IMG/VR virus record: IMGVR_UViG_2563366967_000002
Coordinates: 1-13,999 of that record
Length of the DNA: 13,999 nucleotides
Origin: a virus
Lineage: Duplodnaviria; Heunggongvirae; Uroviricota; Caudoviricetes
Reading direction: 5' to 3' (one strand)
A program made the position numbers and the translations under genes. Shown piece by piece: positions 12,861-13,904 of the stretch (its first letter is position 1; each line of letters starts with the position of its first letter). Under the pieces are notes generated by a model. That model worked only from the letters and a program-made list of their open reading frames with translations. It searched no databases and was not told where the DNA came from.

Positions 12861-12904
12861 TTCTAAGTCGTGGGCCGCAGGTTCGAATCCTGCAGGGCGC
12901 GCCA
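12861..12904 (+). tRNA. 3' fragment of tRNA-Arg(UCU) (argU-like; anticodon loop to CCA), not an intact tRNA; prophage att core remnant (pauD-like)
   Basis: cttctaagtcgtgggccgcaggttcgaatcctgcagggcgcgcca matches the recalled 3' half of argU including T-arm and acceptor 3' strand; sequence upstream of the anticodon loop does not match and cannot form D-arm or acceptor 5' strand. Confidence 0.7.
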
Positions 12905-12911
12905 TTAAAAT

Positions 12912-13529
12912 TCAATCAGTTACGCCTTCTTTATTTCTTCTATAATTCCAGAGTGGGACATTATCACCAAAAATGTCGTCTATTTTCCTCGCGTGCTCAG
13001 TCAAATGATTAGGCGCAAGGTGAGCATATCTACGAACCATTTCTCTGGACTCCCATCCGCCCATTTCCTGAAGCACTGATAATGGGACGCCTGACTGAAT
13101 CAGCCAGCTTGCCCAGGTGTGTCTGAGGTCATGGAAACGGAAATCTTCAATTCCTGCACGACGACAAGCTGATAGCCATGCTGTCTTGCTGTCGATGCGC
13201 ATCTTCCTGACCGCAGGCGTTGATGTTCCATCTGCTCGCTTAGCCGCCTTGGTATGTACAAACACCCATTTGTGATGCTTGCCTATTTGATCACGCAACA
13301 CTTTACAGGCGGTATCGTTCAGCGCCACACCAATGGCGCGGTTTGATTTGCTATCTTCTGGATTCACCCTGGCAACTTGTCGCTGCATGTCAATCTGTTG
13401 CCACTCCAGATTTATGATGTTCGACTTTCTCAGAACAGTTACCAGCGCAAATTTGACGACAGATTTCAGTGGTTCGGGGCTCTCATCAATCAGGCGTTTT
13501 GCCTGATTCTTTTGTAAGTCTCTTGTGCC
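12912..13529 (-). pseudogene. Tyrosine recombinase (phage integrase) C-terminal catalytic-domain fragment
   Basis: Contains [38 protein letters not shown] (catalytic His-x-x-Arg and Tyr region). Only ~200 aa of the expected ~380; the upstream part of the listed ORF (to 13649) is the antisense of tfa. Stop lies 8 nt from the tRNA fragment 3' end, the arrangement recalled for argU-intD. Confidence 0.8.
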
Positions 13530-13904
13530 ATTCCACCTCATACAGGTTTGCCTGCAAACAGTACCGATATTGCACCGCCAGATATTCCGGCTGGCTTCGT
13601 GGTTGTTTTCAACAGTGATGAGGCATCGTGGCATCTCGTTGAAGACCATCGGGGTAAAACGGTTTATGACGTGGCATCAGGGGACGCGTTATTTATTTCT
13701 GAACTCGGTCCGTTACCGGAAAATGTCACCTGGTTATCCCCGGCAGGGGAGTTTCAGAAGTGGAACGGCACATCATGGATAAAGGATACGGAGGAAGAAA
13801 CCTCGTTGCTGGAAGCCTGTAAGATGTATCGGGTGTTGCTGAACCGAGTTGATACATCAACTGCCCCTGATATTGAGTGGCCTGTGAACCCTGTCAGAGA
13901 GTAA
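13530..13904 (+). pseudogene. tfa: Tail fibre assembly protein Tfa, 5'-truncated (N-terminal ~30 codons replaced by the integrase fragment)
   Basis: …[86 protein letters not shown]…[37 protein letters not shown] matches recalled lambda Tfa. In-frame stop at 13515-13517; the only start is a TTG at 13548. Confidence 0.75.

Follow-up and report, generated by a model that had tools for sequence, protein, structure and literature searches.

A tRNA-Arg fragment and an integrase–tfa fusion as the probable boundary between two phage elements at argU

The right end of the stretch of virus DNA analysed here (13,999 nucleotides, positions 1 to 13,999 of the IMG/VR record IMGVR_UViG_2563366967_000002, Caudoviricetes; hereafter the window) contains part of a tRNA gene, followed closely by a shortened integrase gene that runs into a tail fibre assembly gene (tfa) on the opposite strand. 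This arrangement raises the question of how the joint arose and whether the neighbouring cargo, an ompT gene, a hydrolase gene and a katN operon, has become fixed in the bacterial chromosome. The first-pass annotation, made from the letters of the window, regarded the region as the scar of serial integration at argU. We consider it very probable that the region is the boundary of two elements which use the same attachment site, the 3′ end of argU, and that it came about by the steps proposed below. The two elements, a complete prophage on the left and an old prophage remnant on the right, are called A and B here.

The last 45 nt of the intact argU, the gene of tRNA-Arg(UCU), taken from the closest genome (a proxy of 99.7 % identity), are matched in 45 of 45 positions by window 12860–12904, which has the sequence CTTCTAAGTCGTGGGCCGCAGGTTCGAATCCTGCAGGGCGCGCCA. 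The fragment spans from the anticodon loop to the CCA end, and a 38-nt sub-pattern of it gave no chance match in 100 shuffles. It had been described as an argU-like 3′ half of 44 nt; the match is exact, with a length of 45 nt. ARAGORN detected no complete tRNA in the window, and the intact argU was found upstream in the proxy genome. The Rfam tRNA model, searched with E values up to 10, hit the window at 12810–12893, with 19.7 bits and thus below the gathering score of 29. Window 12860–12904 is a 3′ tRNA fragment, the argU att core. Together with the adjoining TT it forms the plus-strand block 12860–12906, which is shared by attP, attB, attL and attR, and which apparently serves as attR of prophage A and was once the attL core of remnant B.

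To the left of the core lies the P arm of the prophage A att site (12438–12859), the region upstream of ompT. P arm, core and int are contiguous in the free phages Turner, 2G7b, ev243 and Kati, which are 95.5–95.9 % identical to window 12700–13502, and the P arm is homologous to the regions upstream of the remnant B ompT and of pauD in K-12-type strains. A scan for terminators and promoters gave nothing beyond chance near the core. The GenBank entries of phages Turner and Kati place a "tRNA-Pro" of 84 nt on attP, covering P arm and core (L009 1622–1705 in Turner). We found this tRNA unsupported, as ARAGORN recognised none in phage Turner or 2G7b either and the Rfam match is below the threshold. 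The annotation is likely an artefact caused by a real tRNA 3′ half.

Everything beyond the window was read from two proxy genomes, strains 04-00955 and VG38-53E1, and not from the source genome. The window itself starts inside gene J, and the intact argU, intD and xis are those of these two proxies of 99.7 % identity. Both strains match all 13,999 nt, the last 1400 nt with 100 % identity, and the pairwise comparison of the window with 04-00955 gave 99.7 %. In 04-00955, the locus begins with folD, the intact argU (recognised by ARAGORN), an intact intD of 387 aa, a Xis-like ORF of 123 aa and a lambdoid prophage of about 47 kb, with early, lysis, head and tail genes and then J, lom, stf and tfa fragments. 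It continues with a Mn-catalase (katN-type) operon, a SAM methyltransferase, a ′tfa fragment, an alpha/beta hydrolase, ompT and the exact 45-nt core, and ends with int′, ′tfa, a second methyltransferase, a second ompT, a degenerate core, ybcH and nfrA. From the second methyltransferase, the SAM-dependent one of remnant B in the proxy annotation, only the 3′ end is present in the window (13959–13999, minus strand), the rest of the gene lying beyond the window end.

Three direct copies of the core were found in this genome, in the intact argU, at 12860–12904 and, in degenerate form, at L001 21637–21683 (about 3.4 kb past the window end). They thus delimit two elements, the complete prophage A and the 3.4-kb remnant B, and the idea of serial integration at argU is borne out by two argU-targeting elements in tandem. 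The distal core of remnant B has four mismatches to the 47-nt core, three of them within the 38-nt search pattern, which may reflect a divergent attP and not the age of the remnant. The bacterial flank of the distal core (L001 21637–21700) is unlike that in K-12-type and empty-site strains and lacks envY; upstream of argU, these strains have folD instead of the sfm/fimZ operon. The stf ORF (2982–5051) is intact in the window, with 689 aa, and corresponds to a partial pseudogene plus a "head spike fiber" gene in the annotation of 04-00955. Many of the 39 differences between the window and this proxy may fall into the stf region.

The integrase gene of remnant B, int′ (12912–13523, minus strand), was recognised by the PF00589 domain, by alignment with IntD and by its PGAP label. 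It is part of a minus-strand ORF of 245 aa, which has an ATG and spans 12912–13649. The stop codon (12912–12914) lies 7 nt, and not 8 nt as first counted, from the CCA of the convergent argU fragment; the ancestral IntD stop is seen at 12920–12922. Residues 45–214 of the ORF match positions 3–171 of the 172 positions of PF00589 (Pfam, E 3.5e-43), showing that the catalytic domain is present, and int′ aligns to residues 184–373 of the 387-aa IntD with 88 % identity. The earlier impression that the integrase keeps only its catalytic half was therefore right. Alignment of the ORF to phage integrases confirmed the truncation, the homology ending at the Arg codon 13521–13523. The N-terminal residues 1–183 are absent from all six frames of the window, so that no intact integrase N-terminus is hidden in another frame. 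The best match (E 0.032) lies within the methyltransferase gene and is at chance level, and we rejected it as a displaced N-terminus.

The first 42 codons of the 245-aa ORF represent antisense tfa and the joint. At the other end, 11 nt are deleted at about 12953/12954, between two TGGGACAT repeats; the last 14 int′ codons are thereby out of frame but can still be recognised in another. PGAP labels the gene as "frameshifted; incomplete; missing N-terminus". Of the features of a functional integrase, the catalytic domain was found, and the N-terminal arm-binding and core-binding domains as well as an intact frame are missing; int′ is a pseudogene and not a functional member of the family. Strains SF-468 and RM14723 have an additional 2-nt deletion in int′, and such extra frameshifts in two of the four compared strains indicate neutral decay. 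In the same two strains, int′ has a dense cluster of substitutions in common that sets it apart from the window and NC101 (window positions of about 13087–13300, alignment columns 238–450); an earlier recombination or gene-conversion event with another integrase allele may have left this tract.

Alignments of 252 phage integrases begin almost uniformly at the Arg codon 13521–13523, and homology to Tfa begins at 13530, with IPPHTG, which is residue 32 of the 191-aa Tfa (BLASTP). The deletion joint between int′ and ′tfa, TGTGCC, therefore lies at 13524–13529, between the last codon with integrase homology and the first with homology to Tfa; the int′–′tfa joint sequence is CTTTTGTAAGTCTCTTGTGCCATTCCACCTCAT. 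This position falls inside the interval of about 13520–13530 given in the first-pass annotation, and the fusion of an intD-type catalytic half to a 5′-truncated tfa also agrees with its proposal that the two were joined by deletion. However, the integrase is not joined to the middle of tfa, as was stated there, since the break is at codon 32 of 191, roughly one-sixth into the gene. The two fragments stand head-to-head, in the same relative orientation as in an intact lambdoid prophage, and one simple internal deletion thus explains the joint. It is base-for-base identical in the window, SF-468, RM14723 and NC101. None of the phage records spans the joint, including those of 2G7b, ev243, Turner, Kati and the PhiR series. 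The search brought up no full-length parent of the B-type integrase allele, and at the DNA level the known integrases diverge from 13503 onward.

The tail fibre assembly gene of remnant B, ′tfa (13530–13904, plus strand), was identified by BLASTP against the 191-aa Tfa, by PF02413 and by the PGAP label "missing N-terminus". It lacks codons 1–31, has a 39-aa in-frame internal deletion and reaches its stop at 13904. It matches PF02413 (Caudo_TAP) but not at full length, and in RM14723 it has suffered a 4-nt deletion. We take int′ and ′tfa to be decaying pseudogenes without function. The Rfam family IS009 (RF02111) gave a match on the ′tfa coding sequence, especially at 13746–13861, with an 88-nt gap where ′tfa is deleted. 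The match (64.6 bits) is below the gathering score of 117 and lies inside the tfa coding sequence, and we rejected it as a feature; the family itself appears to have been modelled on tfa sequence.

How A came to lie beside B can be followed at the att sites, for which all expected states were recovered in one alignment. The free phage 2G7b provides attP (P arm, core and P′ arm with int), strain UMB200201_11 the empty attB (argU directly followed by envY–ybcH), NC101 the attL of the remnant alone (argU 5′ half, core, int′) and the K-12-type pauD region attR (P arm, core, envY flank). Besides these four att states, the window provides the tandem joint, composed of the P arm of A on the ompT side, the core and the P′ arm of B on the int′ side. 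The block common to all of them is 47 nt long, i.e. the 45 tRNA bases and TT. Right of the core, the window does not differ from the NC101 remnant over the whole length of int′ (100 % identity), and the int gene of prophage A carries the free-phage allele from the third base past the core. This places the exchange inside the core, and in the alignment the crossover maps between 12859 and an A/C difference at 12908. We infer that A was integrated by Int, which predicts an exchange inside the core, unlike homologous recombination in the int genes.

Regarding the order of events, we rebuilt the sequence as it would have been before the arrival of A, from 478 nt of folD–argU of the proxy and window 12905–13999 (1573 nt in total). 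NC101, NGF1, M-17 and over 20 further genomes contain it in full length with 100 % identity. Remnant B lies directly beside an intact argU, without an upstream prophage, in 1041 of 5426 complete E. coli genomes (coverage of at least 80 %), and the tandem form is present in 78 genomes (query window 12200–13999, coverage of at least 80 %). The two numbers add up approximately to the 1117 genomes that hold the int′–′tfa junction at all, a count which merges the tandem and remnant-only states, with remnant-only genomes covering 81 % of its query. The upstream prophages differ in the three tandem genomes inspected, with katN/hydrolase, MTase/hydrolase and pinR/appY, respectively. B is thus found alone, A-like phages are found free, and the genes shared by A and B differ by 5–6 %, as expected of a tandem array. 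The first-pass annotation placed the deletion after the second integration. By contrast, the occurrence of the identical junction in so many genomes without an upstream prophage, and beside differing prophages in the tandem ones, argues that the deletion preceded the second integration, an order that we infer by parsimony. The simplest account would be a single ancient deletion, after which the remnant spread and decayed neutrally, and different phages later integrated several times independently into the still functional argU. Precise excision of A from tandem ancestors would equally yield remnant-only genomes.

The history of the locus may then have been as follows. An old lambdoid prophage of the DLP12/P22 type, B, would have entered argU, where the phage's own 45-nt copy would have regenerated the 3′ end of the tRNA, and the displaced argU core copy would have been left at the far end of B, beside ybcH. 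A single internal deletion from integrase codon 183 to tfa codon 31, which would amount to tens of kb in a typical lambdoid, would have produced the order argU–int′–′tfa–methyltransferase–ompT–core, now fixed in about one fifth of sequenced E. coli. Much later, in the lineage of the window, the still functional argU would have received A, a complete temperate phage of Nesevirus-like type that shares the att specificity of B, by recombination in its 47-nt core. In this last step the core of A would have completed the tRNA, and the earlier functional 3′ half would have been displaced to 12860–12904.

The right arm of prophage A (5652–12437) is a series of stacked cargo modules with tfa fragments between them. 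It contains tfa′ (5652–5768), the Mn-catalase/ferritin-like (katN) operon (5888–8101, minus strand), a SAM methyltransferase (8599–9267, minus strand), a ′tfa fragment (9417–9629), the alpha/beta hydrolase (9813–11297, minus strand) and, closest to the att site, ompT (11484–12437, minus strand). The last is a 317-aa ORF, named as omptin OmpT in the proxy annotation, and adjoins attP in 2G7b. Window 8552–9353 is 97 % identical to the ′tfa end and methyltransferase of remnant B, and window 11327–12906 is 94 % identical to its ompT, P arm and core. The arrangement suggests that repeated recombination at tfa homologies built the cargo stack. Strains with the tandem have two intact ompT paralogues of 317 aa and about 94 % DNA identity, the phage-borne one in the window at 11484–12437 and that of the remnant at L001 20260–21213.

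In the proxy genome, prophage A has an intact 387-aa intD, perfect 45-nt att repeats and the 123-aa Xis-like ORF. The latter is 100 % identical over its full length to its counterparts in phages Kati, PhiR49_1 and PhiR29_1/2 and 98–99 % identical to those of 2G7b, ev243 and Turner; PGAP calls only a 66-nt partial HTH gene in its place, and Pfam HTH_17 covers profile positions 2–32 of 51. A appears to be excision-competent in the closest genomes. Phage 2G7b (Nesevirus) has the hydrolase, ompT, attP and int in one contiguous stretch, and the same cargo set is found in prophages at other chromosomal sites, e.g. in O157:H7. The position of the cargo upstream of the core in A, the intact intD, Xis and att sites and the arrangement in 2G7b together make the cargo phage-borne and plausibly mobile, and we regard the katN operon, the hydrolase and the first ompT as morons of phage A. 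The claim that the element is immobilised and its cargo fixed is not supported, as the truncated int′ belongs to B and the ompT, hydrolase and katN operon lie in A.

It could be argued that two prophages stood in tandem first and that a later deletion from the 5′ half of int to tfa immobilised the element and fixed the ompT, hydrolase and katN cargo. Taken alone, the anatomy at 12860–13530 is compatible with such a history, and tandem arrays do exist. Nevertheless, we regard it as highly improbable, given the identical junction without an upstream prophage in 1041 genomes against 78 in tandem, the differing upstream prophages of the tandem genomes, and the location of the named cargo, which lies upstream of the core, belongs to a prophage whose intD and xis are intact and whose att repeats are perfect, and follows the same cargo–attP–int order as in the free phage 2G7b. 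The array might also have formed without site-specific recombination, either by RecA-dependent recombination with the remnant, which is about 95 % identical, or by integration of a phage dimer. The homology between A and B is sufficient for RecA, with about 640 nt of int that are about 95 % identical and with ompT and the P arm at 94 %. However, int′ in the window is identical to the remnant-only allele over its whole length and the int of A has the free-phage allele from the third base, so the alleles show no crossover in int and an exchange in the 47-nt core. A dimer is excluded by the difference of 5–6 % between A and B and by the 1041 genomes with B alone. Taken together, these two routes seem very unlikely.

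The remaining alternative is that the pieces at the boundary are functional in themselves, the 45-nt segment as a tRNA-like gene or the 245-aa ORF at 12912–13649 as a stand-alone catalytic-domain recombinase, which we find close to untenable. The "tRNA-Pro" annotated over the equivalent attP in phage Turner and the sub-threshold Rfam match at 12810–12893 would speak for a tRNA-like gene, but ARAGORN found no tRNA in the window, Turner or 2G7b, and the Rfam score was 19.7 against 29. The ORF does have an ATG and a complete PF00589 domain, yet its first 42 codons are antisense tfa and the joint, its C-terminus is frameshifted, and it is broken by the further 2-nt deletion in SF-468 and RM14723.

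One further possibility is that remnant B is not inert. Both of its att arms are preserved, P′ within int′ and P upstream of the B copy of ompT, and the intact Int and Xis of A, acting in trans on these arms, could excise A, B or A and B together. We consider this unlikely. The identity of the cargo modules of A to those of B (97 % and 94 %) is suggestive of co-excision; int or core relics were not found in the cargo region of A, and no phage record runs across the int′–′tfa joint. If A and B were excised together, a phage would gain a second ompT–methyltransferase module, and cycles of tandem integration, internal deletion and co-excision would explain the stack of cargo separated by tfa fragments at 5652–12437.

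In practice, the reading that we prefer, in which prophage A entered argU beside an already deleted remnant B, serves as a correction: the cargo of ompT, hydrolase and Mn-catalase is to be regarded as carried by a phage and potentially mobile rather than as a fixed part of the chromosome. About 20 % of complete E. coli genomes have the int′–′tfa–MTase–ompT remnant of about 3.4 kb, which is a stable marker of lineage. Since argU beside the remnant is still an open landing site for ompT-carrying phages, some strains have two ompT paralogues. Both pseudogenes are labelled correctly by PGAP in more than 1000 genomes. The scar at argU is already known biology, represented by DLP12 at argU and by the published PAI-argU islands, and the locus leaves the current understanding of tRNA-targeted integration unchanged.

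Tandem lysogens and serial islands at tRNA genes are textbook cases, in which integration regenerates a functional attB within attL and makes the site reusable. The window shares with them the attP-like P–core–P′ joint between two elements; here, the older member is only 3.4 kb long, and in principle the two cases are alike. Among single elements, the closest known system is DLP12, the cryptic lambdoid prophage at argU of E. coli K-12 (argU–intD ... ompT–pauD), reportedly described by Lindsey, Mullin and Walker in 1989. Both loci use the 3′ end of argU as att site, have a P22/DLP12-type integrase gene that converges on the tRNA and lies a few nt from it, and carry ompT beside the distal core; the K-12-type pauD region aligns with the P arm and core of the window at 98.2 %. 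K-12-type strains, however, have one element with a full-length intD and appY, whereas at the locus of the window the resident element is cut down to int′–′tfa–MTase–ompT and a second complete prophage lies between it and argU. Moreover, in the proxy the distal core of the remnant is degenerate (four mismatches) and envY is absent. The reference list of PMC7918800 cites Lindsey et al. 1989 for DLP12/argU.

Two pathogenicity islands at argU have been published for B2 ExPEC strains, PAI-IHE3034-argU (50 kb; Iss, ompT) and PAI-S88-argU (38 kb; ompT) (PMC7545054). They share the locus and the ompT cargo with the window. In IHE3034, the published island coordinates contain a match to 72 % of the window, with 94 % identity. 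In contrast to our division of the locus, these islands are catalogued as single units and are not split into a prophage and an older remnant (PMC7545054); the cargo also differs, as the katN operon is present in the window. The free phages 2G7b and ev243 (Nesevirus), Turner, Kati and the PhiR series resemble prophage A in having the hydrolase, ompT, attP with the 47-nt core, and int in one contiguous order and in a Xis 98–100 % identical to that of A, but they are free genomes, with a full-length int and no int′–′tfa joint.
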